A stretch of 64,000 nucleotides of DNA from a virus, in the IMG/VR virus record IMGVR_UViG_3300028775_000009; one strand, 5' to 3'. Shown one piece after another: positions 1 to 61,560 of this stretch; within the stretch, counting starts at the first letter, position 1, and each line of letters begins with the position of its first letter. A model generated the notes under the pieces. It ran no database searches and was not told where the DNA came from. It was given only the letters and a program-made list of their open reading frames with translations. The translations under genes were made by a program, and so were the position numbers.

Positions 1-25
1 ACCCTTGAAGGAAAATGGAAAATTC

Positions 26-2247: not shown

Positions 2248-3174
2248 TTAGTTGTCAGTGCAGTACGCGGTAACCGTCATGTTGATGTAGAAGCCAGAAG
2301 GAACTCCCGCAGGCATAAAGAACCTCACCTGAAGCTGGTCGTTCGCGTTTACGGGGAACGAAGGAGACGCCACCGACTCCACCGTTACCCCCGTCCACGT
2401 CTGCGTCACCGCCGAATTTGGAATGGCGATGCCCTGCGTGATATCCCACATTTGAATCGTTATTGGCGTAGAAAGTCCGCCGCTCATACGCGCATCGTAG
2501 ACGACCCGATTGAGGCTACAGGCGTTTGGAGCGAGGTACACCATGTCCGGGTTGTGGCCGAGCGCTACCAGCGACCCGAGATAGTAAGTCGTGGTCGGCG
2601 AGACGACGATGTTGGTCGGAGCCACAAACTTGAAGACGTCCACCGGAGCGTTGAATAGCTGGCGGAAGGACGATCCGTTCTCTGAGATTTGGAGGATTCC
2701 GTTGCTTCGGCACAGCGTACTCGAACCGGGAGTCGTTGAGGTCGCCGCGGCACTCAAAACGCACGCTGGAGTACCGTCGCAGAATATAGCTTGGCCTGGG
2801 TCTGAGGACGAGAAGTAGGAGCACACCGCTGGAGGCACCAGCGCGCTCACCGAATTCGAAGGCGAGGATACAAACCCGGCCAGAACAGACTGCACGTAGT
2901 AGCAGTAGGACGATCCGGCAGCCACCGTGACATCGGTATACGGCCCACCAGCCGCTACCCCGGAAGCGAGTGTTGAGAATGTCTGCCCCGTCACACAGGC
3001 ACCGGGAGCGCGAGAGACGGTGATCGTGGTTCCCGCTGTAGTCGATGCCGCCCAGTTGAGGACAACTTCGCTTGGCGCGGTCGCAGTCGCGCCTGTCGCA
3101 GTCACGGCTAAGTTTGTCTGGCTGAAGGCCGCTGTGGTCAGGGCAAGGAGAGCTAGGGCTAGGCGACGGAGCAT
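2248..3174 (-). CDS. Secreted protein: signal peptide, FN3-like domain, beta-sandwich C-terminus
   Basis: MLRRLALALLALTTAAFSQ; VVLNWAAS...YTDVTVAAGSSYCYYVQSV is an FN3 pattern; GAGG RBS upstream of ATG 3174. Confidence 0.65.
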   Translation of the reverse strand: MLRRLALALLALTTAAFSQTNLAVTATGATATAPSEVVLNWAASTTAGTTITVSRAPGACVTGQTFSTLASGVAAGGPYTDVTVAAGSSYCYYVQSVLAGFVSSPSNSVSALVPPAVCSYFSSSDPGQAIFCDGTPACVLSAAATSTTPGSSTLCRSNGILQISENGSSFRQLFNAPVDVFKFVAPTNIVVSPTTTYYLGSLVALGHNPDMVYLAPNACSLNRVVYDARMSGGLSTPITIQMWDITQGIAIPNSAVTQTWTGVTVESVASPSFPVNANDQLQVRFFMPAGVPSGFYINMTVTAYCTDN

Positions 3175-14200: not shown

Positions 14201-14660
14201 CGACTTGTGTGGGCGACGTCATCCCAGATACAGCGCGGGATGCTCCCTTCGAAAGTTGCCCCAGCTTCGTCTTCGGGTTGACTGGGAATAGCTCTTCCAC
14301 CGCTACGAGCGGGTGGTTGACAAAGTTGCGAAATGCCGCGGTATAATCGCCGGTAACCTGCGCAGCCTGCTTCGCTTCACTAACAGCGCCGCTGGCTCCG
14401 GAGTAGCCCACCGTGTTCTTTACACGCTCCCACCATGTCGGGTTATAGGCGCTGATCGACGCAGTCGGAGCTTCAGTTTTCGGTTTCTCGGCAGGCTTGT
14501 CGAATGAACCGACGACAGCGCCGGCTGGAAGACCCTTGATCTTCGGCGCGTCGGTGTGCTTTGGTTTAGGCTGCGGCTTTGAGAATGAGCCGACAACGGC
14601 TCCCGGTGGAAGTCCCTTCACTGCGGGCGGGTTTACTTGCTCGTCTGCCATGTACGCCAA
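5286..14660 (-). CDS. Giant polyvalent (DarB-like) virion/ejection protein, 3124 aa: DdrB-like ParB domain, zincin metallopeptidase, strawberry-notch-like SF2 helicase
   Basis: GPPIVMPDGTVLSGNGRT (~aa 920); VIHEAAH (~aa 1390); SPTGSGKT (~aa 1820), FDESAE, YMSATPF and QSTGRTWRYG (~aa 2215); last large gene of the ejection-protein block. Confidence 0.8.
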   Translation of the reverse strand: MAYMADEQVNPPAVKGLPPGAVVGSFSKPQPKPKHTDAPKIKGLPAGAVVGSFDKPAEKPKTEAPTASISAYNPTWWERVKNTVGYSGASGAVSEAKQAAQVTGDYTAAFRNFVNHPLVAVEELFPVNPKTKLGQLSKGASRAVSGMTSPTQVAMMAAPGAAVVKGGEYVASAMHAVGLAMMPTMGEGIVDTAHQIHEARQRGDDAGENEAWGEMAANVAMIVVPHVGGKIAEGGENTARLNDKAKDLYKKPFKQLTDPEKAHTLYSSVEDQSPGFRKRVDQETDKIRKSQTRGDAQADIEWMNDRAKANSARLQAAKTVLGQELQRQRAAEQYKQAQAAAEAKVKANEEAQRRTQYQAAKADEITPAAEERGFGVNDQRRNTRGDRGLVKTTEKETEPVHAPSPEPMEGGVKVVDKRTAPGSVEIQTASELERPVQEYAEENAGASFSSLPLDRQREVASKFEREQPEKWDAFKATPAYDAYRRHADMVEASRPAVTRWMNRNEGTGEPLAPGADETAGLARVILEHSNIAASMKAAPDIYRALSEYSEKNFGKSFDAIEKSDQVSALAGFLNEDPARAKAFTTPEIADRLSRGEHIDVANYEASLRDRQQVDTLMAYRDSTRAQVDQELAGQAVREARADHVQQIRNTITNATSAETGAGEALTNQAKGLTRLAERINLQDVGGSRDIFDVQRAIRKIPESQRSPDMNEFMSQMRQTRAAAERQVLDAYREDLISRMRTDIESGTERAAREVVHFEDQKQVINRAADRLGGPEALPEQKAEAEALRDTADFIQRKEDEIVAATEVVKPRTERETNPKMPAILGRETRVRLNSGEEVPVHYAVVDSNNLITSHRSTENYTPDPRYPQEAQPRNYQDQPELQAAVEERAGALDADQILSNSVLPVDGPPIVMPDGTVLSGNGRTQSMKLAQKRGRYEEVRASILDRAQAFGIDPASIFEMRNPVLVRVMDRTVTDPATLARYGIEMNRDPSQGMSSTEQSAALSRLLTPSVVERMANVFRSVSGDSSLRTAMRARSADLADILRDAGLVDPKKRSAYFTEDGDLTEPAKALIENTLAGIAVSNPQVLGRTSAAIKDKLGRVGMDFVIMRSAGEIWNLASYNTDAVELMTRAQDQSARLNQLEGRDVTKDESHGSESLIERLLHPERYRLSNFDLSFDGQATHPPVHPAVESLARALEETPREYANMIGDYAEEAERGGVTMFGAIHPADVFTEQIASKYGMEVIPEEWGMVGGLPDAAKEIIEEARNGLPVEPARAAEAVEEAIQPDSSSVIENEKGFEPTSVRDFRKALADHPGFTDEQAEAVGDIFERVLPRAIGESFDTILKNKMIRFRFGGEDRGARGATDIMEDGSKLIHLFDKADTSTVIHEAAHAIRHYLNGSDQAILNQFVEARPGAEWTTAQEEKFAEAFERYHYDGGRRRGALEKAFDTIHKAIQAVYDAVRGRGLAKASPEVEKMFDNWYDWTRSERKPITARVDVDALEKSVKDPKVAIPEGARILDETAHIDPNARNFVFTDRKSADDFIDRNNQAIRTYQLFDGKDGNFYVKASTVGKRLYQGGAASIGDLARQARQLEERLRTTTDPREEAKIRAQLASVENRLGGSTLIFGSTPERANSEVINAVHGVAEMPHMEEPTTPAQAMSARQVYGTTEFGGRDGERANVREVPDGNAGLPDATRTAEVPERTGAADGRDETTGRVLPGHPEPSGRGEETADGKRAASLPLAKMPAASLAAPKRARGTPLASPEAWRDYAEALGLPEGTPAPTVRLPDDLRNLMIFPGQPEAIEVALSGLQQYDGVVVASPTGSGKTFQALAIADQLLGDSGEKVGLIVTRSRNLIHDSDGYVDVGKQLGVSVEGLPASMNDVQGGGTYATTYAQIRGDKDMLSIPWDFVIFDESAELRKWMESEQGQSGRLLGRAAKKAVYMSATPFHTAVEIGYMDKLGLWPEGGFFEWARQFGVVETGPNSYTGGYAPKKLLKLRQQLIERGQWASLHRDLDGVTAHVGLVEQTPEVQDGVKKIRDVFNLAGKIFREQGKSSMARATQAQEVIYLKRYIESARLPHAIEMAKKAIADGWNPVIYSEYRSGTSEGMKFFERLPAGMADHLNKMLPALPDVVEAMRDGLKQDIGIFAGSANELRAEERQAFMDGTKKGVYTTYAAGGVGASFHDRAGDRPRMDIHLGLPWSGIMFEQSTGRTWRYGTKSNVAKIFLTSDALPEIKVLTTKILPRMRALNAVVRGEVVESRLAKSLRESVGISEEAIDYEMGNESAPEAAQFEERGAGVGFTRIEDLKLPRAKDAIGKDKGMKYKAQPKRLYQGPVDDPIDKSTSEAMKRNLEDVPPSMRRAYLANTPAISADVAIEGAKAAVAREPVVPAVERAAKDSKIGFDLAIGERGLFFQHTAGKQLAALKDFAREWMYLRHTSGDQAIRKIMAHEGFPSEGREVQRRLIERSHLKTDHQGELLAKVSDIIGDIRPSDHPLVVKVLEGKAESTDPAILKAVDGYRTFFSYVRNRLGDAGAKMKFYRDGKEQTVTYKQIADDPNYWPHIYDWNKPILIEGKNGAKPTVTTLGEIHDMPTNDARRQDLIEAYAGKRGISVVDAAKFFEKNRRGVRLSGNLEKGRRTSIPDYDTTNRAMNVYVDQVASMLANIETVGQEREKLNPLILQLPLATQQVVDSVVSADLNPSSVGESNKRLLRAASQWVVLSKMGLSTLKLPYHMAKTGLVTNLRSLAGGVFSTATSPIEATRMARDAGILTDYVRQAMMMEYGLHAGGLDQKMLTLTGFTPAIWISRIVSSAAGRVFLERYAAPALKANPKDVQLRRKLQDLYAYSDEDMDRIAASGYNTSDVRRAMIAAADWTTGSGRPSELPPSVRYAADHPISKQQNTLMRLTWMLKTYTFKTANLVNRTVFEGMKNPDWTEKDYKALGRWLIGFGAAGMGLRVMQYGINKKKNPEAAAEELRRFEGIQEHPQDALWLELGNVSYGMGIYPAKVMFDRLATHEPKDIKSFDTKKRLEFATAEESGGILASDLDHIRLAGINYYKTFGDDGVHHKASTEERRSKILADLAKQEIAPVGTVEAFFRPAKPEESKSEHIRHRRPARRRTHAIQ

Positions 14661-14679: not shown

Positions 14680-16353
14680 CTACAGCGCTTGAAATTCTCC
14701 GTTGACCGCCCATCCGATCAAATGCTGCTTGTCGTCGTACACGGGGGCAGATGCGCCCTTCGGCGGCTTGTGCCCCTGCACCTCCGGCAGCCCGCCGTCT
14801 TCGTGCTTGGCGGTCTCCGTTTTGGGGTTCTCCGGGGGCTTAGCATCGGTATGAGCGTAAGGCTTCATGCGGCCAAGCACTACCTTACGATCCTCCGGTG
14901 ATATCCCCCCGCCCACCTTGGGGTCGTTGAGAACATCTTTGATCTGCTGCTGCAGATCCATCTCAAACTTTTGAGCCTGTTTCTTGTCGAGGTTTCCCGA
15001 GTATTTCCCGTTTTTATCCGGTTGTCCAAGGTATTTACCGTACGACCGCATCCCGTCGCCGTCACGCGGAACGAAGTTGGCGAGCTTGTCGCTGAAGTCT
15101 TTGTCGTCGCGGTACTGAGGAAGCGACTGCAGGCGCTCGATCGCCGAACTGAGCACCTTGTTGTCAAACTGAACTGGCTCCTGAGTCGCGCTGTACGACT
15201 GACCCTCGTCATCCGAGATCGACTTCTTGATCGCCATCTTATCAGCTTCACGATCAAGCTTGTCGTCATCCCAACCGGGGTTATGTTCTTTCAGATACGA
15301 GCGTGCCTGACCATACGCTTTTTCGTAGCGATTAGATCCGGTGCCGCTACCGCCGCGGCCACCGCCGCTCCTCCCCTTAGCTGCGTACTCCTTCTGTGGT
15401 CCGCGCAGTTGCTTGTACGTTCCATCCCCATTGTCCATGAGGATTTCACCCTCGCGGGTGACCGTCAGCTTTGTCTTCGGCCCGGTAGGGACCTTGTTGA
15501 GTTCGAGGATCTGTTTGTCTTGGTCGGTGAGCTTGTAGTTTGGGTCTTTTTCCAAACGCCCAAAAACATCATCGAGAGCGCGCTTCGCCTCGTCCCCTGG
15601 CTTTTCCGCCACAGGCTTCGCGACGGGCGCGATACGCTCTTCGAGAGACGTGAGCCGCGTGTTCTGATCTGCCGTGCGCTGGCCTGCCGGAATCTGCAAA
15701 AGCTTGTCACGCTCGGCCACCGCCTGTTGATGGCTGAGGTCGTTCTGATCTTTGAGTGTCTTCGCCTGTACCGAGGGATCGGCTGCGCGCTGCTGCGCCT
15801 GCCGCTGTCCCATCGCAATCTGCCCGTAAACTGGTGGGCCAGCCTTCTGACTGAGTTCGAATAATGCCTGCGTCTTGACGTGCGGGTCAGGACTATTCAG
15901 CCGGTTCATCAGGGGCTCCTGAGCGGCCTGCTGCGCCTTCTTTCCACCCTTACCCTTTTGCTCTTGGACAATGAACGGACGCCGGAAGTCTTGCAACGCT
16001 CCCCAGCTACCATCCACCGCATTCTTGGCCGAGACGTACTCGGGACTCTTTGGGTCAACTCCGGCCTGACTAAGTTGGAAGAGCCGCGTCGCATCCTGAT
16101 TGTAGGACGCCTGGAGGTTGTCGTCCTTCTTTTTGAACTTCATCACGTCGGCGGCTTGCTTGTACGCACGACCGGCCATGACGCCGCGCAGCAGCCCGTC
16201 CGCAATGGTTGCGATCGCGCCCGAGTGCTTTACCGCTCCATTGGCTTCTGGAGCCTGTGTCGGGATAGGAGATGGCATCGCCACCGGAGACACGTCCGGC
16301 AACACTGGAGCCTGATAGGGGGTTGAGGTGGTTGGATCATAAGCTTGCGGCAC
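14680..16353 (-). CDS. Probable internal virion / DNA ejection protein (557 aa)
   Basis: Helical Ala/Gln/Lys-rich protein lying between the nozzle and the giant protein; GGAGG RBS. Confidence 0.55.
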   Translation of the reverse strand: MPQAYDPTTSTPYQAPVLPDVSPVAMPSPIPTQAPEANGAVKHSGAIATIADGLLRGVMAGRAYKQAADVMKFKKKDDNLQASYNQDATRLFQLSQAGVDPKSPEYVSAKNAVDGSWGALQDFRRPFIVQEQKGKGGKKAQQAAQEPLMNRLNSPDPHVKTQALFELSQKAGPPVYGQIAMGQRQAQQRAADPSVQAKTLKDQNDLSHQQAVAERDKLLQIPAGQRTADQNTRLTSLEERIAPVAKPVAEKPGDEAKRALDDVFGRLEKDPNYKLTDQDKQILELNKVPTGPKTKLTVTREGEILMDNGDGTYKQLRGPQKEYAAKGRSGGGRGGSGTGSNRYEKAYGQARSYLKEHNPGWDDDKLDREADKMAIKKSISDDEGQSYSATQEPVQFDNKVLSSAIERLQSLPQYRDDKDFSDKLANFVPRDGDGMRSYGKYLGQPDKNGKYSGNLDKKQAQKFEMDLQQQIKDVLNDPKVGGGISPEDRKVVLGRMKPYAHTDAKPPENPKTETAKHEDGGLPEVQGHKPPKGASAPVYDDKQHLIGWAVNGEFQAL

Positions 16354-25805: not shown

Positions 25806-26486
25806 TTACACCGACGCCAGTTCTTCGGTCTCCACCTTTGCAGGCTCCGGCTTCATCCCGTACTTTGCCATGGTCTCAACCTTCTCTGTAACGCCCATCG
25901 TATCCCAGATTCTCCACGCAAAACCCTTCGGCTTCTTCAGTGTGGTGAGGTCGATGGATTTCGGATCTACAACGACTACGGCCTTGGAGTTCATCTCCTC
26001 GATCGCGAGTTGAAGACCAGATTTTTCAACCAGTCCCGGCCCGGCCGTAATTGTGATCTCGCCGCCAAAGACCTCGCCAACGGTCGACTCAGGGGTGAAT
26101 CCTTGCGACAGACCGATTACGTTAATTTCTACGCCGAGAATTTCCGGTTCCGCCGTGGCGCCGGCAGTGATCTCCTTGAAGAGCTTCTCCGCGTCGTCGT
26201 CATCCTCTTCGACCACGGCAACAGTCTCAACTACAGGTGCGTGCTCCTCGTCCCAATTGTCAGGCTTCCGAACGGAGAAGGTTCCGCTTCCGCCACACTT
26301 GTCGCAGGTAGACTTCATATCGCCGGCCGCCGCTCCAGCTACCGGGACGGTTGTCTGGCCGGTGCCTGAGCATGCGAGGCATACTGCCACAAAACCTCGG
26401 GAGAAACAGTTCTTGCAGCCCATGGGTACGTCTGGATTGGTGCAGTGGCATCTCGATACAACTCCGTGAAAATCGGTTAGTTTCAT
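25806..26486 (-). CDS. DnaJ-type zinc-finger protein with acidic tail
   Basis: CKNCFSRG, CLACSGTG and CDKCGGSG (CxxCxGxG-like); start MKLTDF just after the upstream stop. Confidence 0.6.
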   Translation of the reverse strand: MKLTDFHGVVSRCHCTNPDVPMGCKNCFSRGFVAVCLACSGTGQTTVPVAGAAAGDMKSTCDKCGGSGTFSVRKPDNWDEEHAPVVETVAVVEEDDDDAEKLFKEITAGATAEPEILGVEINVIGLSQGFTPESTVGEVFGGEITITAGPGLVEKSGLQLAIEEMNSKAVVVVDPKSIDLTTLKKPKGFAWRIWDTMGVTEKVETMAKYGMKPEPAKVETEELASV

Positions 26487-26491
26487 CCTCG

Positions 26492-27178
26492 TCACCTTCG
26501 TTTGATTGGATTGACCTGCATGGGTGCCCCGGTAGCGCGAGACCAAATGTAAATATCGCGGCGGTCCTGAATCTGCGTCATGCGCGCCGCCTGGTCTAAA
26601 AACGATTGGAGCATTTTATTGCTCTCGCTGAATTCATTTCCAGCCTCCTTGAACCGTGCGTAGTGCGCGGCATACTCCTGAAGCGCCGAAAAGAATTGGT
26701 CCTCAAACGGCACCGTCTGCGCTCCATCATAAGGCCAAGTCTCGGTCGAAGGGTACTGAATTCCAGTGAGGAGCACTGTTTGGCCCGTGTAGACCGAGGG
26801 ATGCACCACAAACATATTGAAGCCGAGCGGAGCCCAATGCTCGATGACATCGCCCATATCCTGCTCCCAGTCCGATCCCCATGAGTTTTGGAGATAGTCG
26901 AGGTCTTCAAGCGTATACTTCCACGCCTCCGAAGCCGCACCTTGAACGTTGGTGATGCAGAGCATCCCTTTGGGGACGAGTTGCCACGGGGTATTCGGCA
27001 CGATCGAGAATGGCTGGCTGACGATCTGCGTTGGTCGTCCCACCAGAAGCATCAGTTCGTTGCATGCCTCGACCAGGCCGGGGTAAATTTCGGTCGCGAG
27101 CTTCCAGAATACGCCTGGCCCCACGGGCTCCTCTAAACGATTCTGAACGTCGGCCGCGAGTGAAGCGATGGTTGCCAT
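26492..27178 (-). CDS. Head-tail adaptor / tail tubular protein A-like (228 aa)
   Basis: ATIASLAADVQNRLEE...VPFEDQFFSALQEYAAHYARFKE, the typical adaptor N- and C-terminal helices. Confidence 0.6.
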   Translation of the reverse strand: MATIASLAADVQNRLEEPVGPGVFWKLATEIYPGLVEACNELMLLVGRPTQIVSQPFSIVPNTPWQLVPKGMLCITNVQGAASEAWKYTLEDLDYLQNSWGSDWEQDMGDVIEHWAPLGFNMFVVHPSVYTGQTVLLTGIQYPSTETWPYDGAQTVPFEDQFFSALQEYAAHYARFKEAGNEFSESNKMLQSFLDQAARMTQIQDRRDIYIWSRATGAPMQVNPIKRR

Positions 27179-27182
27179 AATT

Positions 27183-29306
27183 TTAGCGGGACGCCGCGCT
27201 ACCTATCGTAACAGCCCTGCCTGATACGTTGAGAGGTGGCGATATGGTGACCGCATAACAATCTGAAGCGTTGAATGCAGTATTCGGCGTCGTGCCACTA
27301 CCGTCTGGAGTTCCACTCATCGTGTTCAGATAGCAGTCCATCGCCGGGATGCTGTTGACCATGCCACCCAGCGCCATCGCTGAGGTTCCGCCTGCGCACT
27401 GGCTGTTATTGACCACCAAATAACCGTTATAGGTTCCGCTCGTACAGACCAGCAGGTTTCCACCGGTCACGTCGGGGCCGATCAACGGCCAAGGCTTTGC
27501 GGCTGGGATAAATGATGGTTTCGATGAGAATGCAAACGATGCAGGCATTGCGCTCTGACCTGCTCCGGTGTCACCCAGGGTCGGGACTGCACTCTGATAG
27601 GTTCCGATTGCTGTGGGAATCTCAGAGGTAGAGGAGCAGGTCGTAGACCAGCCGGTATCGGATGAGTTGCCGCACCATCTGACCGCGTTCGTCTTAGCAT
27701 CCCAGTTGCCCCACCGTAGAAGGGTTGAGGCCACACTTGGAGCGGTCGTGTCGTTGGTTACGCCATCGCCCCAGCCGAGGTCGTATATTTCACCGGTGGT
27801 ATTAGATGTAGTGTCGGTACCCTGATACACCGAAGCGAATCCCGGCTTCCCGATTACGTTGCCCACGATGCTCAGCGCACGGTTATAGCTTAGTGCAGCA
27901 AAAGCCCAGTTCCAGAAACCGTCATTATTCGCATTTGCCGAGCCAGCAGACCACCCATAAACCTGATTGCGGAAGTAGGTAGACATACCGCCAGAGCCGT
28001 GTACGTCGTCGGACTTGTAGCCGGGGGTTATATTGCCTTCCCAGAGAACGTCCATCACTCCGGGATTGTGGTTTGTAGTCGTTAGCCCTAGAGGCCCACC
28101 GGGTGTTGTATTCGGTGCGCCTGAAGGTGAATTGCACTGCGTCCCGTTCTGGCAGAACAGGTCGAGAATGTCGTAGTTGTAGGCCCTGACCGTTCCCGTA
28201 TCCAGTTGGGTCATCTGTGGCGAGGAAACCTGCTGGTAGATGTTGTTGACGATCAGATTGTCCGAGGTCAGAAAGCTCTCATGCCCGTAACTTGAACTGA
28301 GCGCGTTCTTGGTGCCCCAAGCATAGTTGTTCATAATCGTGATGTGCGCAGCGTCGGCAAGCTGGATATGTGATCTTCCGGGTAGGTAAGTCGCTAGTCC
28401 AGTAGCCCAATCATTCGCGGAATTGAAGAATGAAATATTGAGCGAACTGGAATTTCCCGTATCCAGGCGGTCATCGATGGTCAGGTTTTCTATTCCGGCG
28501 TTCTGCACGGTAGATGAAGGCCACCACGCGCCCGGATTGTTACTGCTAGACCAGTTCTGTCCGTACAATCCGGGTGATATGGTGAAGGTCGATCCTGACG
28601 TACACGACGGGGAGCACGCGGTAATCTGCACCATCTGCGCAATACCGTGATCTACTCCGCTAACCACGCGGAACCCATTACCGGGCTGTATGGAGCACGT
28701 TGTAGGGTTCGTGTCACAAAAGAACATGTTGCCCGTAGGCGAGGCTACGTTGGCTTGGTCGAGGATGATATATTTGCCGACGCTGAGTCCGTTGCTGCCC
28801 ACAGAGGTGAGGGTTATATTGGTAGTCCCCTGCGTGAATCCTGCCGTCCAAGTCGCTGCATTCGAGCCACCCGGTTGGACCGTAGACGCACCGGAAAACG
28901 TGTTCGAATCCGATGTAAAGCAGACAATGGCTGAACATGCACCACCCGAATACCCGCCCGCAGGGACGACCAAAAGGGTCTGGTTCGCGCCGGAGCCCCT
29001 TAGGGTCACATTTGACTTCAGATTGATCGACGCCGTGATGCTATAGGTTCCAGGATTCAGTAACACTACTTCATTCGATGCGCATCCAGTGATCGCTGAG
29101 TTGATGTTAGCGGCAGTCACCGACTGCGCAAAGCTTGGTGCTTGGCCAGCCGTTCCCAGGGTTGAGCAGATTGTGCTACGTGTAGGAATACCGCCAACTA
29201 CACCGGCAGATGTCCAGTCTATAGTGCGGCTTGAATCAATGACTCCGGAGGTTAGTTGCGCTGCGCACGGAAGCGATAGGAGGAGGAAGCAGATAAATTT
29301 TCTCAT
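27183..29306 (-). CDS. Pectate-lyase-like beta-helix tailspike/depolymerase with signal-peptide-like N-terminus
   Basis: INSAITGC...VVLLNPGTYSITASINLKSNVTLRGSGANQT; N-terminus MRKFICFLLLSLPCAAQ; the ATG overlaps the upstream TGA. Confidence 0.7.
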   Translation of the reverse strand: MRKFICFLLLSLPCAAQLTSGVIDSSRTIDWTSAGVVGGIPTRSTICSTLGTAGQAPSFAQSVTAANINSAITGCASNEVVLLNPGTYSITASINLKSNVTLRGSGANQTLLVVPAGGYSGGACSAIVCFTSDSNTFSGASTVQPGGSNAATWTAGFTQGTTNITLTSVGSNGLSVGKYIILDQANVASPTGNMFFCDTNPTTCSIQPGNGFRVVSGVDHGIAQMVQITACSPSCTSGSTFTISPGLYGQNWSSSNNPGAWWPSSTVQNAGIENLTIDDRLDTGNSSSLNISFFNSANDWATGLATYLPGRSHIQLADAAHITIMNNYAWGTKNALSSSYGHESFLTSDNLIVNNIYQQVSSPQMTQLDTGTVRAYNYDILDLFCQNGTQCNSPSGAPNTTPGGPLGLTTTNHNPGVMDVLWEGNITPGYKSDDVHGSGGMSTYFRNQVYGWSAGSANANNDGFWNWAFAALSYNRALSIVGNVIGKPGFASVYQGTDTTSNTTGEIYDLGWGDGVTNDTTAPSVASTLLRWGNWDAKTNAVRWCGNSSDTGWSTTCSSTSEIPTAIGTYQSAVPTLGDTGAGQSAMPASFAFSSKPSFIPAAKPWPLIGPDVTGGNLLVCTSGTYNGYLVVNNSQCAGGTSAMALGGMVNSIPAMDCYLNTMSGTPDGSGTTPNTAFNASDCYAVTISPPLNVSGRAVTIGSAASR

Positions 29307-31285
29307 GGCGTCACCGGGTATTCTGCTGCGCCCGACCACTGCACTGCTACACCGTCGATGCAGATCGTGTTTCCGGCATCGCCGTTATCACCACCGAACC
29401 CAAAGGCGAAGTTGGTCGGTGATCCGGATTGCGCCGGGTTAGAGGCTTTCTGCTGGGTCGAAAGCAGGTTGCCGAGAGAGTCGTAAATCTCTTGTGTATG
29501 CGCCGAGGTTGATACGTTTCCGGTCGATAGCGATCCGCTGCCGAAGGAGTTGATGCCAGTCATGGTCAAATTTGTTCCCACGTTGGACGTCACGATTCCG
29601 GTTATGCCGTTCGTCGTCCCGTTGAAGAAACTGACTACGGTATTGGCAGCTAGGCCTAGCGCGGTGGCAGTCGTGATCGTGCACGATCCCGTGACCGCCG
29701 TGCAGGATGATGTGCCTGTGGTCGCAACATTATAGCCAACAAACTGCTCGTTGATGTAATACCAGGGGATGATGACCCAGCTTGTCGCCGTACCGCTGCC
29801 GTAAGCCTTATGCGAGTTGACTACTAGCGTCGTTCCGGTATCAGACGTGACTTGTGCCAGCATCGCCCCAGACGCTGTGCCAAGGTTGTTGCTGGTTGCA
29901 ATCTCCACCCAAGTGCCAGCAGCGAGGCCTAATGATGTCGCAGTGGTAAAGGTCAGTGCCCCCGTCCCCACCGTGTTCGAAGTGGTCGAGGAGCCGGTCG
30001 TCCACTGGAAGGCCCCGTTGGGGATCGTTCCGCCCAGACTTGTAGCCGGGTTTGCGAAGTCATCATTCCCGTTCAGGTTCAGGTGGGTCTCGACATAGAG
30101 CGTCCCGTTGTGGTGCATCAACGAGGAAAAGTCACCGCCGTTATTAGGCCCGAACATCGAATAGAACGTTCCCGTTTCGCCAGCAGCGATGAAGGGCAGA
30201 TCCCATGCCGCAATCAGCATTACATTAGGGTTGGCCGGGAGCGCCAGCGGCATCACGTATTTCATCTGCGCGGAGAGGTTGGCTGCTGCCGTGATATTCG
30301 CCAGCCCTCTCGTGCCGGAGGAGTCGGTGTTCGAGGTTCCAGCAATATTCTTTCCTGTTATCTGTGGTGGCGATTGACATGCCGATAAAATCTCTTGTGT
30401 CCCCGGTGTAGTTGCTGGAACTGTAAAATTGCCCGATGCGCCATTCAACTGTCCCGCGCTCACCGCACTCGCTACCGCAATAGGCTGTGTGATTGCCGTA
30501 CCACTAGTTGAAGTCTCGAAGTTGAAGAACAGATCGAAGGTATTTCCAACTGACGCAGGCAGAAATCCAACTTGGTTCACCGCCGCCACACCCCCCGTAG
30601 TCCACGACCATGTTCCGTTGATTGCCGCAGCGGTAGTCTGCACATCATAGGCAAGCCCGTAAGCGGTCGTGTTCGACACATTGAAGTGTGAATTAGTAAT
30701 GGTATAGGGAGAGGAGACTGTCGGTCCTGCCGTGGCCGAACCATTCGCCCAACTAGTTACGATAAGGTTATTGGCGCTTACCGGAGTCATCGAACCTGCT
30801 GCAAGGGTGCTGACACTTGTAGCCGCTCCAGCCTGCGTGAACTGGCCTATGGGAGCCGAGTGAGCCACCCCGGAGAAACAGGCAATGGCGCTCGATGCAA
30901 AGGTAGTTCCAGTCCATGTAAAGGTCTCGGAAGCATTTGTGATTAGGTTTGGGGCGTAGTAGACGCGGTTGTTTTCGGTTCCTCCGCCGCAGGTCGTATC
31001 GCATTGCAGGTAGGGTCCATACCAGATGTTGCCCGCGAGATCGGCAACCGATCCGGCAGTTCCGTTCGAACCGAAGTCAGAGACCGTCCATATACAGATA
31101 TTTGCGCCAGTAGTGTTGACCGCGCTCGTAGTGCAGTTTCCTCCGCTCGACGTGTTGTTGCAGGAGGTATTCGCAATCAGGCCGATGCCGGTAACCCCCT
31201 GCATATTCACAATGTAGGAGAGCATCTGCGCTCTCGCGGGGAGGCAGAGCGCCAGCAATATGATAAGAACTAGTGGTTTATCCAT
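29303..31285 (-). CDS. Thr/Ser/Gly-rich tail-fibre-like protein with signal-peptide-like N-terminus (660 aa)
   Basis: MDKPLVLIILLALCLPARAQ; fibre-type modules TTSAVNTTGAN and AQVTSDTGTTLVVN..GSGTATSW. Confidence 0.55.
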   Translation of the reverse strand: MDKPLVLIILLALCLPARAQMLSYIVNMQGVTGIGLIANTSCNNTSSGGNCTTSAVNTTGANICIWTVSDFGSNGTAGSVADLAGNIWYGPYLQCDTTCGGGTENNRVYYAPNLITNASETFTWTGTTFASSAIACFSGVAHSAPIGQFTQAGAATSVSTLAAGSMTPVSANNLIVTSWANGSATAGPTVSSPYTITNSHFNVSNTTAYGLAYDVQTTAAAINGTWSWTTGGVAAVNQVGFLPASVGNTFDLFFNFETSTSGTAITQPIAVASAVSAGQLNGASGNFTVPATTPGTQEILSACQSPPQITGKNIAGTSNTDSSGTRGLANITAAANLSAQMKYVMPLALPANPNVMLIAAWDLPFIAAGETGTFYSMFGPNNGGDFSSLMHHNGTLYVETHLNLNGNDDFANPATSLGGTIPNGAFQWTTGSSTTSNTVGTGALTFTTATSLGLAAGTWVEIATSNNLGTASGAMLAQVTSDTGTTLVVNSHKAYGSGTATSWVIIPWYYINEQFVGYNVATTGTSSCTAVTGSCTITTATALGLAANTVVSFFNGTTNGITGIVTSNVGTNLTMTGINSFGSGSLSTGNVSTSAHTQEIYDSLGNLLSTQQKASNPAQSGSPTNFAFGFGGDNGDAGNTICIDGVAVQWSGAAEYPVTP

Positions 31286-33426
31286 ACGCCAAATCCCGCC
31301 CCAAATGCGCTGTAGTGAGTTGAGTCAAGACCTTCGATGCAAAGCGCATCACCTTTTGCACCGCCCGAAACCAGCGTTCCCGTCGTCACCGTTCCGTTAG
31401 TTCCCCCATAAGCGATAAAGACGCTGGTGGTTGACGTGATCGTTAGAACACCAGTCTGACCGGGATAATTTGTAAAGCAATACGTCTTTCCTAAAACGGG
31501 AGCATCGACGACCCAATTGAAAGCCCCCCCACTATTATTGACGTAAACGCCAGATACTCCCGTCAGCGTTAGCGGTGATCCGCTCGTCGATACTATTGTC
31601 GGCGTAATGTTCGTGTAGGCTGTCGTCGCTAGTTTGGTTGAGTTGTCGCCAGCAGTCTGAGTGGTTGCGGTCACGCCGTTGGGTAGAGCTGGCGTTCCCG
31701 AAAGGTTGGCCGCAGTTCCAGAGATGCTGCCCGAAGGGATGACGTAATCCGTACCTGCCGTGGCCGCCGAGAGGCTTCCAGCGGCATCCTTTAGTAGTCC
31801 GGTCAAAGATGATGGTCCCTGAGTTGTCCCGAGATTGCCCGTCAGTCCAGAGAAGGCTGTAACCGGAGTGATCCACGAACATACGGACTGCGTGACTCCA
31901 TTGACCGTACCGGGAACCGCAAACGCCATCACCTGCCCCGCTGTCGGGCTGGCTGCACACATCTGCTGAAAGTAGGTTTGCGTGCCAGTAGTGGTGCCAA
32001 TCCAGCCGTTGTACGCGGTCGGCAAAAGGGTAGTTGGAACCGTACCCGATCCCACGCCAAGAGCAAATGCTCCCTGCGTGCTGCCCGTCGACGCAAACCC
32101 GCCAGCCGAAGCGATACCGCCGGCACCACCGTAGGTCAGCGTGTTTGCTGTCGTCTGGCTGTCGTCGAGGTTGGCGTCCGAAGTTGGAGCTGCACCAGCC
32201 CCACCACCAAGAAGAAGGTGCCCTGCCGCAAGTACGGCCGATGAGGTCAGCACGGTCGCGCTCGAGAAATATGGGATGCCGCCGGAGTTGGTCGTGCCAG
32301 CCACGGTCTGCGGGAAACTGATGGAGCCGCCAGTAATCGAGTTGCAGCCAAAACCGGTGCCCGTCGTCCAGATAAGGGCACTACTCCCAGCCGTCGAGCA
32401 GGACGGCATAGGCAGCGCAGATGGAGACCCGCTGGCGATCGCGCCTACAACCGTGTTAGCCGCCTGCGATGCTAGGCCGCTCAAGCTTAGGGCTGCACTG
32501 AGGCTGCCGGCGCTCCCTGACGTGTTCGCAGCGTTGTTCGGGATGTCGGATGAGACAAGAGCACGGAAGCTATAAGCCCCCGTCCCGCCAGTGGCAGGCC
32601 CCGCAAGCACCGAATTTTGAACCGCGGTCGAAGCCGTGAATGCCAAGGCCGGCGCGGTCGTCGGATTGGCCCCCAGAGCTGCCGTGAAGAGTGGGGATAG
32701 GTTACCAGTGGTGAAACTCGTTAGGCCGCCCGTGACCGTCGATAGCGCCCATGCTGTACCCGTCCAGTTCAAGTAGCCGGTCGTTAGAGACGGCAAAAGG
32801 TGATTGATTAGTCCAACGACCTCGGTCGCCCCACCGGTCGAGCCGCTGATCGCGTCTCCGGACAACTGGTTGAAGGTTCCGGTTCCACCGCAAGATCCCC
32901 ACGCAGTCGTAAAGCATCGGAAGGTGTTGTCAGTGACCCGGAAGTACTGGCTCCCGCCTACGCCTGGGACTTCAGTGTCGTTGTACGCGCCAGCCAAACT
33001 GTTGACAGCGATGCGCGGCGCCACGATGACTGCGTTGATTTGGGTTGTGATGCTCTGAGACGCCCCTGTCACCGCCAGGGGAGTCGTTGAGTAGCAGGGC
33101 GTGTTCGCCATCTGAGGACAGACTTTGAGGGACCAGCCGCTTGCCGGAGGGTTCGTCGCTGGAGTCGTTCCGGTGGTCGACGTCACCACTTGCGAAAACG
33201 ACCCGGTTCCATCGAGGGTGCCGGAGAAGGTGAGCGTAAATGCCTGGCCCGCGACTACGGGGACACCGCCAGCCGGGTTGTAGACAAAGGTGAGCACGTA
33301 AGTGCCGTTCGCCCACGCCTGACTATCGGAGTCGGTTACGGTAGCAGAGAGAGTCGTTGTCGCCGCGAAGACTGCAGGGGTAATCGCTAGGATTATGAAC
33401 CAAAACAGTTTTCGAAGCGCCTTCAT
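31270..33426 (-). CDS. Tail-fibre-like protein with signal-peptide-like N-terminus
   Basis: MKALRKLFWFIILAITPAVFA, then LSATVTDSDSQAWANGT (fibre N-domain-like) and TTQTAGDNSTKLATTAY (tail-fibre motif); GAGGT RBS. Confidence 0.6.
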   Translation of the reverse strand: MKALRKLFWFIILAITPAVFAATTTLSATVTDSDSQAWANGTYVLTFVYNPAGGVPVVAGQAFTLTFSGTLDGTGSFSQVVTSTTGTTPATNPPASGWSLKVCPQMANTPCYSTTPLAVTGASQSITTQINAVIVAPRIAVNSLAGAYNDTEVPGVGGSQYFRVTDNTFRCFTTAWGSCGGTGTFNQLSGDAISGSTGGATEVVGLINHLLPSLTTGYLNWTGTAWALSTVTGGLTSFTTGNLSPLFTAALGANPTTAPALAFTASTAVQNSVLAGPATGGTGAYSFRALVSSDIPNNAANTSGSAGSLSAALSLSGLASQAANTVVGAIASGSPSALPMPSCSTAGSSALIWTTGTGFGCNSITGGSISFPQTVAGTTNSGGIPYFSSATVLTSSAVLAAGHLLLGGGAGAAPTSDANLDDSQTTANTLTYGGAGGIASAGGFASTGSTQGAFALGVGSGTVPTTLLPTAYNGWIGTTTGTQTYFQQMCAASPTAGQVMAFAVPGTVNGVTQSVCSWITPVTAFSGLTGNLGTTQGPSSLTGLLKDAAGSLSAATAGTDYVIPSGSISGTAANLSGTPALPNGVTATTQTAGDNSTKLATTAYTNITPTIVSTSGSPLTLTGVSGVYVNNSGGAFNWVVDAPVLGKTYCFTNYPGQTGVLTITSTTSVFIAYGGTNGTVTTGTLVSGGAKGDALCIEGLDSTHYSAFGAGFGVWINH

Positions 33427-33436
33427 TTGAATCACC

Positions 33437-34000
33437 TCAAGCTTGCATGAACCCTGCTACAAACGTATCTCCACTGGTGCCGTCAATCCAGAACTCGCTC
33501 GTCTTGAGCGTGTCCGCCAAGTCAGTTGCCGAGAGGTACGGGTTTGCTCCTGTCGGAAGGTTGACTACCCAGAAAACGGACGAGTCGCCAACTGCGACCG
33601 TAGAGGCGTTGCCCAGATACATCGGGCTGGTCGACGTCACTGGCTCTACCCAAACCTTCATCGCGTCTTCGTTGACCACAACATACTCGCCGCTGGCGTG
33701 ATTCTTTAGTAGGCCGGATACTGTGATCGACGGGGTTACCGTATTGATCGAAGCGATGATGCCGAGGTCAAGCGCGCCGCCGGGAACAAAGGCCGCCTTT
33801 AACCCAACAAGCACATGATCGCCCGTCTTCATGCCGACGATCGACACCACCGGCAGAACGGTCTGCGACGGGTTGCTGCCTGGATTCGTATTTTGAGAGT
33901 ATGGGTCGAGTGTCTGCACCCCAGCCCCGTTCATGGTGGTGCCGAAGACTGGTTGCGACGCTGCCCCAAGTGCCTGAATTCCCCTATATGGACGAATCAT
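33437..34000 (-). CDS. Hypothetical virion-block protein (187 aa)
   Basis: Coupled ORF in the late operon. Confidence 0.65.
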   Translation of the reverse strand: MIRPYRGIQALGAASQPVFGTTMNGAGVQTLDPYSQNTNPGSNPSQTVLPVVSIVGMKTGDHVLVGLKAAFVPGGALDLGIIASINTVTPSITVSGLLKNHASGEYVVVNEDAMKVWVEPVTSTSPMYLGNASTVAVGDSSVFWVVNLPTGANPYLSATDLADTLKTSEFWIDGTSGDTFVAGFMQA

Positions 34001-60568: not shown

Positions 60569-60943
60569 ATGAATGACCTTACACTTGGACCTTGGCAGTT
60601 CGACAGCAATACCAGAACCATCTACGGCACACCCCGATACGGCACGATCGAGCAGACTGCGGCCAACGCTGAATTTCAAGGAGCCGACTGCAATTCGCTG
60701 AATGAGGTTTGCAAGGTTCACCGCGTTAGCGTCTCCGAGTTTTGGCTAGGCCATACGCACTACCCAATGAAGGTTGATGTTGTTGAGTTCTTTCGACGAC
60801 GATCTCAGGCCAACGCCAACCTCATCGTGGCCGCGCCGGATCTACTGCAAGCGCTAAAAGATTTTGTTTCTATCACCGAGGGCGATGGGGCCGTGAAAAT
60901 GGCTGCCATTACTGCAATCAAAAAGGCGGAAGGAACCCTATGA
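60569..60943 (+). CDS. Hypothetical protein
   Basis: ANANLIVAAPDLLQALK motif frequent in phage early proteins. Confidence 0.7.
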   Translation: MNDLTLGPWQFDSNTRTIYGTPRYGTIEQTAANAEFQGADCNSLNEVCKVHRVSVSEFWLGHTHYPMKVDVVEFFRRRSQANANLIVAAPDLLQALKDFVSITEGDGAVKMAAITAIKKAEGTL

Positions 60944-61560
60944 GGCGTTTAGCTGTCGCCGTTATTGGAGTTAGCACCCTGCTGGCGGCCGAAGTCGCGC
61001 ACAAGGGAATCAAGCCCGGCGACTGCCTGACATGGGCTCAGCACGCTATGGCGCCACCGACCAAGGCGACCATTGCCGGCTGGAATGCATGGCTGGTCGA
61101 GAAGCAAAAGACCCATCCCGGTTACACGCCGAAGACTCACCCAAGGGTGAAGTGGGACTGGGAGCCGATCGCATGCCCCGCTGAAACCGCGCCGCCTACG
61201 CCACTGGTTGAATTGATTTCTGACTTCCCTATAAGCCAGTTCTCGCGCAACGTTACGTTTATCCCGTTCGCCAGCCCTTTGCTGCCAATCGACATCGTGC
61301 CGGTTCAGCCGGGATTCCTCGAAACCGAGGACTCACCCGAAATTCCCGGCATAGAAACCGACCAGGTCGGTCAAAACGAGGACTACCCGCTCGAAACGGG
61401 TGATTTTGGAGAGCTAGGGGGTGTAGGAGGCTTTGGGGGGTACGGAGGTACCACCGGAGGCGGATCGACGCCGCCACCAGCCTCCAGCGTTCCCGAACCG
61501 GCATCCCTGCTGCTCCTTGGAACCGGTCTTTTAACTTTGGCAGCATGGAGGAGACGATGA
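60940..61560 (+). CDS. PEP-CTERM sorting-domain protein
   Basis: N-terminal signal peptide; C-terminal VPEPASLLLLGTGLLTLAAWRRR. Confidence 0.88.
   Translation: MRRLAVAVIGVSTLLAAEVAHKGIKPGDCLTWAQHAMAPPTKATIAGWNAWLVEKQKTHPGYTPKTHPRVKWDWEPIACPAETAPPTPLVELISDFPISQFSRNVTFIPFASPLLPIDIVPVQPGFLETEDSPEIPGIETDQVGQNEDYPLETGDFGELGGVGGFGGYGGTTGGGSTPPPASSVPEPASLLLLGTGLLTLAAWRRR

Follow-up and report, generated by a model that had tools for sequence, protein, structure and literature searches.

Three consecutive large genes on the minus strand of a short-tailed phage from soil (an SU10-like podophage of Acidobacteriota type) begin with apparent Sec-type signal peptides, although they occupy the slot usual for receptor-binding genes. 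Are these receptor-binding proteins (RBPs) that leave the cytoplasm before they reach the virion, as the initial annotation had proposed, or does the slot hold exported proteins of another kind? The question was examined in the window, that is, the whole 64,000-nt stretch of DNA that was analysed.

Signal-bearing genes in the receptor-binding slot

The starts of the three genes were read directly from the sequence and were found, as initially annotated, to be backed by a ribosome-binding site (RBS) or by stop overlaps: (i) gene 1 starts with an ATG at 33426, with GAGGTG 6 nt and an upstream stop 10 nt before it; (ii) gene 2 starts with an ATG at 31285 and overlaps gene 1 by 16 nt; and (iii) gene 3 starts with an ATG at 29306 that overlaps the gene 2 stop as ATGA. 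Each N-terminus reads as had been quoted, with a basic n-region followed by a hydrophobic core (12-14 residues, none charged) and with small residues in positions -3/-1, and cleavage is predicted at VFA↓A (gene 1), ARA↓Q (gene 2) and CAA↓Q (gene 3); neither a twin arginine nor a lipobox was found in these N-termini. A home-made von Heijne-type scan, which is not a trained predictor, gave strong matches among the large late genes of the window only for genes 1-3 and for a fourth gene at 3174-2248, which had been annotated as repeating the pattern and does so. The same scan flagged none of 551 core head and tail open reading frames (ORFs) on 80 related contigs. The fourth gene adjoins a peptide deformylase gene and two glycosyltransferase genes; the same phage also encodes a PEP-CTERM surface protein. 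The features are as follows.

31270..33426, minus strand: gene 1 (718 aa), composed of a signal peptide, a conserved N-domain of beta-sandwich type, a mosaic fibre shaft and a small tip at the C-terminus (start and RBS read)
33364..33426, minus strand: gene 1 predicted signal peptide, residues 1-21, VFA↓A (scan)
32887..33363, minus strand: gene 1 conserved N-domain, residues 22-180 (pLDDT ~90; alignment of homologues)
31615..31650, minus strand: GDNSTKLATTAY motif, gene 1 residues 593-604, end of the intertwined shaft (position; within the predicted trimer interface)
31273..32019, minus strand: gene 1 residues 470-718, shaft and tip, predicted intertwined homotrimer (homotrimer test)
29303..31285, minus strand: gene 2, 660 aa; signal residues 1-19 and an uncharacterised ~210 aa domain at residues ~35-245 (start read)
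27183..29306, minus strand: gene 3, 707 aa; signal peptide, then a predicted right-handed beta-helix glycanase (start read; homologues; AF2/Foldseek)
29259-29306, minus strand: gene 3 predicted signal peptide, residues 1-16, CAA↓Q
27265, no strand: recombination breakpoint near the gene 3 3′ end (divergence of a 99% identical contig)
33437..34000, minus strand: conserved core gene (187 aa) that borders the slot upstream, with 0 cysteines and without a signal
26492..27178, minus strand: downstream flank of the slot, SU10-type adaptor protein without a signal (Pfam PF24175 over its full length; synteny)
2248..3174, minus strand: fourth signal-bearing gene, 308 aa, AFS↓Q, 8 cysteines

The cassette of genes 1-3 is accessory and optional. 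The slot between the conserved core gene and the adaptor gene was found to be empty in 28 of 40 related phages, and the right-hand junction differs in a contig that carries the cassette at 99% identity; this contig matches over 27265-31849, diverges at 27265 and has a gene 3 that gains a C-terminal CHB_HEX_C domain. The large slot ORFs of close relatives all bear signals (L005, L017, L026, L031 and L040, plus L028/29, L032, L035 and L039), and the isolated Tunturiibacter phage Tunturi_1 displays the same pattern on gp12, gp13, gp14, gp16 and gp17. Distant relatives hold paralogous, signal-less genes of the classic RBP type in this slot.

Signal conservation, cysteines and glutamine at the cleavage site

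Conservation across homologues, which had been proposed as a check on the signals, was observed: the signal is kept in 65 of 84 gene 1 homologues and 98 of 119 gene 3 homologues, and in gene 1 it is the form and not the sequence that is conserved, in 62-65 homologues. The paired cysteines noted earlier were also confirmed, with 10, 10, 16 and 8 residues, mostly near neighbours, in the mature products of genes 1, 2, 3 and the fourth gene, and 0-5 in the remaining virion proteins of the window. Among the signal-bearing relatives of gene 1, 63 of 65 have an even cysteine count (range 2-22, never zero), and the signal-less fibre cousins that share its modules have 0-3. Glutamine follows the predicted cut in three of the four signal genes of the window and in 74 of 98 gene 3 homologues, with an invariant +1 Q alongside conserved cysteines in the gene 3 family. 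In a 400-kb sample of an Acidobacteriaceae metagenome-assembled genome (MAG), glutamine was likewise the commonest +1 residue (13 of 46 signals vs 3.8% glutamine overall). These patterns support the view that the N-termini of genes 1-3 behave as real, selected Sec signal peptides, and export with disulfide folding of the products is well supported.

It could be argued instead that the hydrophobic N-termini are not used for export and represent relics, uncleaved anchors or segments bypassed by internal initiation, with the proteins assembling in the cytoplasm like ordinary fibres. In favour of this account, gene 2 has an in-frame ATG at codon 21, directly past the predicted cleavage site, such that a signal-less isoform is possible, and its N-domain family consists mostly of proteins that lack a signal; the gene 3 signal, moreover, could have arrived passively with a host gene (see below). 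However, signals persist in dozens of diverged phage-encoded homologues despite sequence drift, and cysteine counts split signal-bearing from signal-less relatives almost perfectly. In addition, the next in-frame starts of genes 1 and 3 (codons 44 and 63) lie within conserved mature domains, which argues against the downstream translation start considered in the initial annotation for these two genes, though not for gene 2. We regard unused N-termini as very improbable.

Predicted architecture and origin of the three proteins

The AF2 model of gene 3 is a right-handed beta-helix (pLDDT 88.8), and its best PDB matches are capsule depolymerases of phages (K1 lyase 7W1C, K64-1 S2-4 9K4A, phi297 gp61 4RU5 and LKA1 gp49 4RU4; Foldseek E 1e-13 to 1e-9), consistent with its annotation as a beta-helix depolymerase. 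At least 262 full-length homologues were found, and the protein is collinear with enzymes of bacterial Wzx/Wzy polysaccharide loci: homologues at 76% and 78% identity, plus two more, are located among Wzy, Wzx, glycosyltransferase and sugar-nucleotide genes, and a homologue is present in 10 of 151 genomes from the MAG G001 family. This collinearity and identity mark gene 3 as a captured host exported enzyme. The enzyme body starts directly after the signal, with no extra particle-binding or anchor domain. A tailspike with an added signal was considered for gene 3 and rejected, as the gene copies a cellular exported glycanase over its full length and has no particle-binding domain. Thus, from sequence and model, gene 3 is a predicted beta-helix glycanase of a cellular family from polysaccharide loci.

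Gene 2 consists of a signal peptide and a widespread uncharacterised domain, for which an exhaustive HMMER search returned 1675 relatives. A signal was detected in 44 of the 150 best of these relatives, the rest being mostly stand-alone proteins of ~220 aa; all five full-length or N-terminally complete relatives of gene 2 (P0207-P0209, P0211 and P0212; 40-50% identity) bear one. The initial label of tail fibre or spike suits the fibre-like gene 1 but not gene 3, a captured host glycanase; gene 2 has no assigned function.

Gene 1 is organised as RBPs usually are, with a conserved N-domain and, beyond it, mosaic distal modules. The N-domain, which immediately follows the signal, was modelled as a prealbumin/CarboxypepD_reg-like beta-sandwich (AF2, pLDDT ~90) whose structure matches were only weak ones to generic folds, and it was aligned at the N-terminus of P0002, P0004, P0006, P0017, P0018, P0030, P0041 and P0071. 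Of the 85 homologues of gene 1, the three whose contexts were checked all reside in phage tail modules; some homologues end in an S74 chaperone domain, typical of phage fibres. Neither gene 1 nor its N-domain was found in the 151 genomes of the MAG G001 family. The previously noted tail-fibre motif is present, within the interface of a predicted homotrimer (residues 470-718) that scored 0.79 against 0.00 for the best control, with runs agreeing in at least 87% of contacts and a partner pLDDT of at least 77. Among 30 proteins solved as one-chain pairs, 21 reached the mark of this test, against 0 of 23 solved as single chains, and the pass of gene 1 may reflect likeness because fibre tips are common among solved structures. 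On these models, gene 1 is a trimeric fibre-like adhesin.

This architecture, together with the location of genes 1-3 in the tail operon where distant relatives have RBP-type paralogues, is what would be expected if the signal-bearing proteins, or at least gene 1, were virion RBPs that are exported, cleaved and disulfide-bonded and then dock on fibre-less, DNA-filled particles only at or shortly after lysis, once holin, endolysin and spanin have brought the contents of the compartments together. The tail-module contexts checked, the S74 ends and the absence from the MAG G001 family add to this case. P22 tailspikes can join finished heads in vitro, which makes such late extracytoplasmic docking physically possible. 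Nonetheless, the 28 phages with an empty slot must have another way to adsorb, gene 3 aligns collinearly to enzymes of cells and has no added anchor, no N-terminal domain or anchor common to the three proteins was found, and the adaptor and nozzle-like protein of this phage carry no signal. Furthermore, the gene 1 N-domain is present in another podophage lineage too, whose set of tail genes differs, and this is more in keeping with a generic domain than with one specific to docking. Hence, of the earlier proposal of exported receptor-binding appendages, the export half is upheld by the signals, their conservation and the even cysteine counts, but the virion half, and the new assembly route that it would imply, are doubtful, and exported RBPs represent a minority reading for genes 1-3, unlikely though a serious contender.

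The proteins may alternatively stay in the infected cell's envelope, or be displayed at its surface, for superinfection exclusion, surface remodelling or cell-to-cell adhesion, being neither free enzymes nor virion parts. The model for this is the mosaic adhesive trimer (MAT) fibres of Bdellovibrio bacteriovorus, which are encoded by chromosomal genes of the predator and displayed on its surface (Caulton et al. 2024, PMC10769870). By analogy, gene 1 appears to be built like a MAT, with a signal, a conserved beta-rich domain next, a mosaic trimeric shaft related to phage fibres and, in some members, S74; its best AlphaFold-DB clusters bear names ('cell wall surface anchor family protein' and 'Peptidase S74 domain-containing protein') that are the labels given to MATs by Caulton et al. 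(PMC10769870), and the phage also encodes the PEP-CTERM protein and glycosyltransferases. Unlike MATs, however, the checked relatives of gene 1 are all in phage tail modules. Genes of a late structural operon would also have little opportunity to act at the surface before the cell lyses, no signal for targeting to the outer membrane (lipobox, PEP-CTERM motif or beta-barrel) was seen, and the window has no sign of lysogeny. Display on the infected cell is thus considered improbable.

A proposed exported cassette and its relation to known systems

The reading that we favour, at a probability of roughly 0.5, is that genes 1-3 form an accessory, exchangeable cassette of Sec-exported, surface-glycan-targeting proteins placed in the RBP-gene slot. 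The proteins would be translated late, alongside the tail genes, carried over the inner membrane by SecYEG and cleaved by signal peptidase I, after which two of the three would start with glutamine; they would then fold oxidatively in the periplasm, forming disulfides. Since gene 3 appears to derive from the host's own Wzx/Wzy locus, its glycanase should cut that host's exopolysaccharide or O-antigen. The three proteins would most likely act in the envelope and, once the cell has lysed, in the slime around it. Degrading or binding host polysaccharide in this way may keep progeny from being trapped and lay neighbour cells bare, and the proteins would not be obligatory particle parts. Counted against the cassette reading are the position of the genes mid tail operon, between conserved core genes and the adaptor, and the RBP build, predicted trimer and phage-only contexts (among those checked) of gene 1. 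In the same direction, a search of the window for another clearly variable RBP identified none, and distant relatives have classic RBP-type genes without signals in the slot. Sec export in diderms reaches the periplasm only, and cytoplasmic enzymes are freed by lysis anyway; the benefit of export would therefore rest on a need for disulfides or on action before lysis. Overall, the export signals and the host-locus origin of gene 3 make it very probable that the proteins leave the cytoplasm; actual export and cleavage, the substrate and the site of action are inferred. Two points are new: gene 3 has a host origin, and Tunturi_1/2 provide a culturable test system.

Phage-encoded proteins exported to the envelope are known from lambda (Bor and Lom) and T5 (Llp), sometimes beside tail-fibre genes. 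Those are small outer-membrane proteins or lipoproteins, often expressed from prophages, whereas the products of genes 1-3 are 660-720 aa, fibre-like or enzyme-like, and co-transcribed with tail genes. Sec signals with cleavage exposing glutamine are also found on Porphyromonas phage genes that obey the Bacteroidetes Q-rule, read as an adaptation to host secretion (Matrishin et al. 2023, PMC10367356; Bochtler et al. 2018, PMC5837995). The function of the Porphyromonas genes is not assigned; they were read as envelope modifiers with no tail fibre mentioned, and Acidobacteriota, the host phylum here, is not mentioned in the Q-rule paper (PMC5837995).

Gene 3 can be compared with WceF of Pantoea stewartii and similar glycanases of polysaccharide loci; WceF is an exported right-handed beta-helix enzyme with a tailspike-like fold and a Tat signal (Irmscher et al. 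2021, PMC7949094). Gene 3 resembles it as an exported beta-helix enzyme, with cellular homologues inside Wzx/Wzy biosynthesis loci, but differs in its Sec-type signal and in the location of this copy in a phage tail operon; as gene 3 had no sequence match to any PDB chain, WceF is analogous and not demonstrably of the same family. With capsule depolymerase tailspikes, gene 3 shares the fold and the tail gene region, yet those tailspikes lack a signal and carry an N-terminal particle-binding domain, and gene 3 is the opposite on both counts.

Late operon, lineage and likely host

The window was found to be phage DNA in which the late genes form a long operon on the minus strand; its main features are as follows in operon order.

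44588-42429, minus strand: large terminase
41884-40103, minus strand: SU10-type portal
37742-36774, minus strand: major capsid protein
after the major capsid gene, minus strand: adaptor-like 337-aa protein
between the 337-aa gene and genes 1-3, minus strand: three small conserved genes
33426-31270, 31285-29303 and 29306-27183, minus strand: genes 1 (718 aa), 2 (660 aa) and 3 (707 aa), between the small conserved genes and the SU10-type adaptor
27178-26492, minus strand: full-length SU10-type adaptor
25806-26546, minus strand: zinc-finger protein of 246 aa with two CxxC pairs of the DnaJ type
after the zinc-finger gene, minus strand: tail proteins of 390, 322 and 1349 aa
14680-16353, minus strand: 557-aa protein
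5286-14660, minus strand: giant protein of 3124 aa
end of the operon order, minus strand: peptide deformylase, a fourth signal-bearing gene (3174-2248, 308 aa) and two glycosyltransferases

At least 118 related contigs were identified in IMG/VR, and 80 of these were fetched for comparison. The podoviruses Tunturi_1 and Tunturi_2, whose host is the acidobacterium Tunturiibacter psychrotolerans, have capsid proteins that are distant relatives of the one encoded in the window, and short contigs binned into Acidobacteria metagenome-assembled genomes (MAGs) hold close relatives of the window phage. The host assignment is based on these two observations together with the cellular homologues of gene 3. 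For the tail proteins of 390, 322 and 1349 aa, PDB sequence searches returned no match, and tblastn against GenBank phages returned none for the 322-aa gene; Atlas look-ups linked the 1349-aa protein distantly, as a lead only, to the P22 gp10-type hub family (0.82) and gave a weak lead for the 322-aa protein. The gene of the zinc-finger protein follows that of the adaptor and precedes the tail genes; the protein is conserved in relatives and may act as a chaperone dedicated to the tail or fibres. Outside the operon, a 206-aa protein (60940-61560, plus strand) has at its C-terminal end a sorting motif of the PEP-CTERM type (Pfam PF07589, E-value 2.8e-07); it is a predicted phage-borne substrate of the host exosortase and, as such, another sign of envelope or exopolysaccharide targeting.

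Signal peptides and cysteine content

The initial annotation described three consecutive genes with supported, signal-led starts, and this was confirmed: gene 1 begins at an ATG (33426) preceded by GAGGTG, gene 2 at an ATG (31285) within a 16-nt overlap, and gene 3 at an ATG (29306) within an ATGA overlap, with all three N-termini displaying the n-h-c layout of the Sec/signal peptidase I type. Signals were called by direct reading and a simple von Heijne-type rule rather than by a trained predictor, the criteria being a basic n-region, an uncharged h-region of 7-15 residues and small residues at -3/-1. The predicted cuts (marked by a slash) are VFA/A in gene 1, ARA/Q in gene 2 and CAA/Q in gene 3; the n-region of gene 2 carries D2 and K3, for a net charge of about 0 apart from the N-terminus. 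Lipoprotein and Tat signals were ruled out, as the N-termini of genes 1 to 3 have neither an L-[AS]-[GA]-C motif nor a twin arginine (RR). The rule flagged these three genes and 3174-2248, the FN3-like gene that had been noted as repeating the pattern and indeed does so; it did not flag the head, portal, adaptor, nozzle-like or internal proteins, nor any of 551 core ORFs from the 80 related contigs.

Conservation of the signals across homologues, proposed earlier as a check, was likewise observed. A signal was detected in 62 of 85 gene-1 homologues (65 of 84 when allowing for upstream over-extensions), in 100 of 121 listed gene-3 proteins (98 of 119 on recount) and in all five gene-2 relatives that are full-length or N-terminally complete (40-50% identity), and the signals of the gene-1 and gene-3 homologues keep their form while their sequence varies freely. 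In close relatives, every large gene at the corresponding site bears one (contigs L005, L017, L026, L031 and L040; L028/29, L032, L035 and L039). Signal-peptide-like starts were also found in Tunturi_1 (PP887698.1, locus L081, 10371-23028) on gp12, gp13, gp14, gp16 and gp17; the annotations of gp14 and gp17 are tail spike and virion structural protein, and Q follows the predicted cut in four of the five signal-bearing proteins. Translation from a downstream start, raised earlier as an objection, is disfavored for genes 1 and 3, whose next in-frame start codons (codons 44 and 63) lie within conserved domains, but is possible for gene 2, in which codon 21 is an in-frame ATG (31223-31225, minus strand) directly past the predicted cut and preceded by GAGAG. 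Gene 2 could in this way yield a signal-less cytoplasmic isoform beside the exported form.

The signal-bearing proteins had also been noted to carry paired cysteines, and the counts agree with this. Mature cysteines number 10 in gene 1, 10 in gene 2, 16 in gene 3 and 8 in 3174-2248, mostly as close neighbors, compared with 0-5 in the other virion proteins of the window. The count was found to be even in 63 of 65 signal-bearing gene-1 homologues (range 2-22, never zero), and signal-less gene-1 relatives, which have a classic fibre N-terminus and the same internal modules, contain 0-3 cysteines in 580-1230 residues. Tunturi_1 displays the same split, with 2-32 cysteines in its signal-bearing proteins versus 0-7 in its signal-less structural proteins. 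This pattern is the mark to be expected of oxidative folding outside the cytoplasm. As a separate observation, the 3124-aa (5286-14660, minus strand) and 557-aa (14680-16353, minus strand) proteins have no cysteine at all; this residue seems to be avoided by proteins that probably cross the envelope during ejection. On the grounds of conservation in homologues, synteny and cysteine pattern, the signals were judged to be real, and the sequence evidence strongly suggests that the products of genes 1 to 3 are exported. That the signals are not used for export is regarded as very improbable.

The residue after the predicted cut is Q in three of the four window genes, in 74 of 98 signal-bearing gene-3 homologues and in 30 of 65 signal-bearing gene-1 homologues. 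In an Acidobacteriaceae MAG (G001; L093-L112, a 400-kb sample), Q was also the commonest +1 residue (13 of 46, compared with 3.8% overall), so the phage signals match the habit of the likely host. A Bacteroidetes-like 'Q-rule' may hold in Acidobacteriota, a phylum of which the Q-rule paper makes no mention (Bochtler et al. 2018, PMC5837995). A search of three Acidobacteria MAGs for plant-type glutaminyl cyclase (PF05096) came back negative, a result of little weight since the Porphyromonas enzyme is of another type.

Properties of the three signal-bearing proteins

Homologues of gene 1 share their pieces as a mosaic. Residues 1-180 recur in conserved form in at least eight of them, each time at the N-terminus, and an S74 chaperone domain is present in five of the listed homologues (P0018, P0035, P0040, P0069 and P0081). 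All three homologue contexts that were read are phage tail modules, one being the same site of a related SU10-like phage and two belonging to another podophage lineage, and the N-domain was found in none of 151 genomes of the family of MAG G001. The AlphaFold2 (AF2) monomer model was confident for residues 22-180 (a beta-sandwich, pLDDT ~90) and the last 110 residues and poor between them, as is usual for intertwined fibres. When residues 470-718 were modeled in three copies, an intertwined homotrimer was predicted with a score of 0.79 (best control, 0.00), a figure that expresses model confidence and may in part stem from resemblance to fibre tips already solved; of proteins solved as pairs of one chain, 21 of 30 attain the mark used for this score, compared with 0 of 23 proteins solved as single chains. 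Contact agreement between runs was at least 87% and partner pLDDT at least 77, with an interface spanning residues 493-606 and including the GDNSTKLATTAY motif. Searches with gene 1 were otherwise sparse: Foldseek of the model against the PDB gave only weak generic beta-sandwich matches, Pfam and PHROGs gave almost nothing, and neither the PDB sequence search nor tblastn against GenBank phages returned a match.

For gene 2, a word-based protein search identified a single copy of 95% identity, and an exhaustive search recovered 1675 relatives of a ~210-residue domain (residues ~35-245). Stand-alone proteins of ~220 residues that lack a signal make up most of these relatives; among the best 150, a signal is present in 44. 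Pfam and PHROGs provided no family name or function for gene 2 or for eight relatives, the PDB sequence search gave no match, the genomic contexts of two relatives were uninformative and the Atlas lead was weak.

Gene 3 has at least 262 full-length homologues. In an alignment of 61 sequences, the +1 Q and several cysteines show little or no variation, some acidic and basic columns are invariant, and the conserved body begins right after the signal with no particle-binding domain. The AF2 model is a right-handed parallel beta-helix (pLDDT 88.8, pTM 0.92) whose closest solved neighbors by Foldseek are phage capsule depolymerases and tailspikes, with epimerases and polygalacturonases also among the matches; Pfam and PHROGs gave a sub-threshold pectate-lyase match only, and the PDB sequence search none. 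The family is mainly cellular. Two close homologues, P0088 (78% identical) and P0089 (76%), were found in Wzx/Wzy-type polysaccharide loci, as were the more distant P0129 (on a 2.2-Mb contig) and P0137, with Wzy polymerase, Wzx flippase, glycosyltransferase and sugar-nucleotide genes as neighbors. A homologue is present in 10 of the 151 genomes of the family of MAG G001, and one of 45% identity sits in the tail region of a different phage. Nucleotide alignment with the cellular gene reaches 71% over 27301-29246, a stretch that takes in the whole gene-3 body and leaves out the signal. Given the cellular family, the polysaccharide-locus homologues and a conserved body that starts directly after the signal, gene 3 is best read as an exported host glycanase of a polysaccharide locus that was captured by the phage with an export signal in place and no added anchor. 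Of the suggestion that gene 3 is a beta-helix depolymerase, the fold was upheld, but a cellular-type enzyme with no anchor domain does not fit a tailspike. Set beside its 76-78% identical bacterial counterpart, gene 3 offers a clean case of a phage taking its host's glycan-processing enzyme, and the match points to the likely host and substrate.

An optional slot and the role of its genes

Genes 1 to 3 form a cassette in a slot of the tail module between a 187-aa core gene (33437-34000) and the SU10-type adaptor. Of the 40 related contigs that have both flanks, 28 were found to have no ORF of at least 250 residues in this slot, which indicates that the lineage can do without the cassette; presence throughout the lineage, as looked for in receptor-binding proteins (RBPs), was not found for the slot genes. 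The view of gene 1 as a tail fibre is in keeping with its fibre-like build, predicted trimer and phage tail contexts, but is weakened by these empty slots. In the many close relatives with an extra ~400-aa gene just downstream of the capsid region, after a 245-aa gene (L005, L006, L013-L026 and L028; absent from the window), this gene could encode a head fibre or an alternative RBP where the slot is empty.

The cassette itself also appears to move. One contig (L116) is 99% identical to the window over 27265-31849 and then diverges, with different genes following, and its copy of gene 3 is 798 aa long with an extra CHB_HEX_C-like C-terminal domain. Position ~27265 thereby stands out as a recombination breakpoint at the cassette edge, and a different right-hand junction in a 99% identical copy is as expected of a mobile module.

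The initial annotation proposed exported receptor-binding appendages and a new assembly route, and although the signals and cysteines fit export, virion membership was found to be the minority reading. It would require RBPs that are exported, disulfide-folded in the periplasm and fitted at or after lysis to fibre-less particles built in the cytoplasm, in Tunturi_1 and Tunturi_2 as well. The location within the tail operon and the RBP-like build of gene 1 speak for such docking, as does the content of the same slot in three distant relatives (L055, L057 and L063), where two to three tandem signal-less paralogues of 355-769 aa with a common N-terminus (M-x-R-F/Y-x-T-x-x-F-T...) look like a classic set of interchangeable tailspikes. 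However, genes 1 to 3 have no N-terminal domain in common, the conserved N-domain of gene 1 occurs in another podophage lineage too, gene 3 leaves no room for an anchor, and the adaptor and the 1349-aa protein, the latter with its weak lead to the hub family, are without signals. When the vacant slots, the altered junction with its longer gene 3, and the other envelope-directed genes of the phage (the PEP-CTERM protein, and the fourth exported protein with two glycosyltransferases) are added, docking at lysis is considered unlikely. The same considerations favor genes 1 to 3 as an accessory set of exported, glycan-targeting proteins, a reading to which we assign a probability of about one half. 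Surface display on the infected cell is regarded as improbable.

Export of these proteins would mean that a widespread group of soil phages routes its largest and most variable late proteins via the host secretion and disulfide machinery, which bears on how phages cope with the thick exopolysaccharide of Acidobacteriota. Metagenomic prediction of depolymerases and RBPs would be affected, since signal peptides often serve to exclude virion proteins, as would enzyme expression, since oxidative folding would be needed. Should the exported proteins also join the virion, this would be a two-compartment assembly route new to tailed phages; it is directly testable in Tunturi_1 and Tunturi_2, isolated phages that, with their host, display this gene pattern too.

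No description was found in the literature of signal peptides on fibre- or depolymerase-like genes in the RBP slot of a tailed phage. The closest published cases are the Q-rule signal peptides on Porphyromonas phage genes of unknown function (Matrishin et al. 2023, PMC10367356), the mosaic adhesive trimer (MAT) fibres of Bdellovibrio (Caulton et al. 2024, PMC10769870) and WceF, a glycanase of the Pantoea stewartii polysaccharide locus (Irmscher et al. 2021, PMC7949094). By architecture, gene 1 resembles the MAT fibres in having a signal, a conserved beta-rich N-domain directly after it, a mosaic shaft predicted to be trimeric and, in some family members, an S74 domain; its top AlphaFold-DB cluster matches also bear MAT annotation labels, a likeness by label only. 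Unlike MAT, which is a chromosomal bacterial gene displayed on the bacterium's own surface, gene 1 has only phage contexts (3 of 3 read), and its N-domain was found in none of the 151 genomes of the MAG G001 family. WceF is the nearest described analogue of gene 3 in role but has a Tat signal instead of a Sec-type one. To these cases the window adds the cellular origin of one cassette member, a link between cysteine parity and signal, an optional slot and a culturable phage-host pair.
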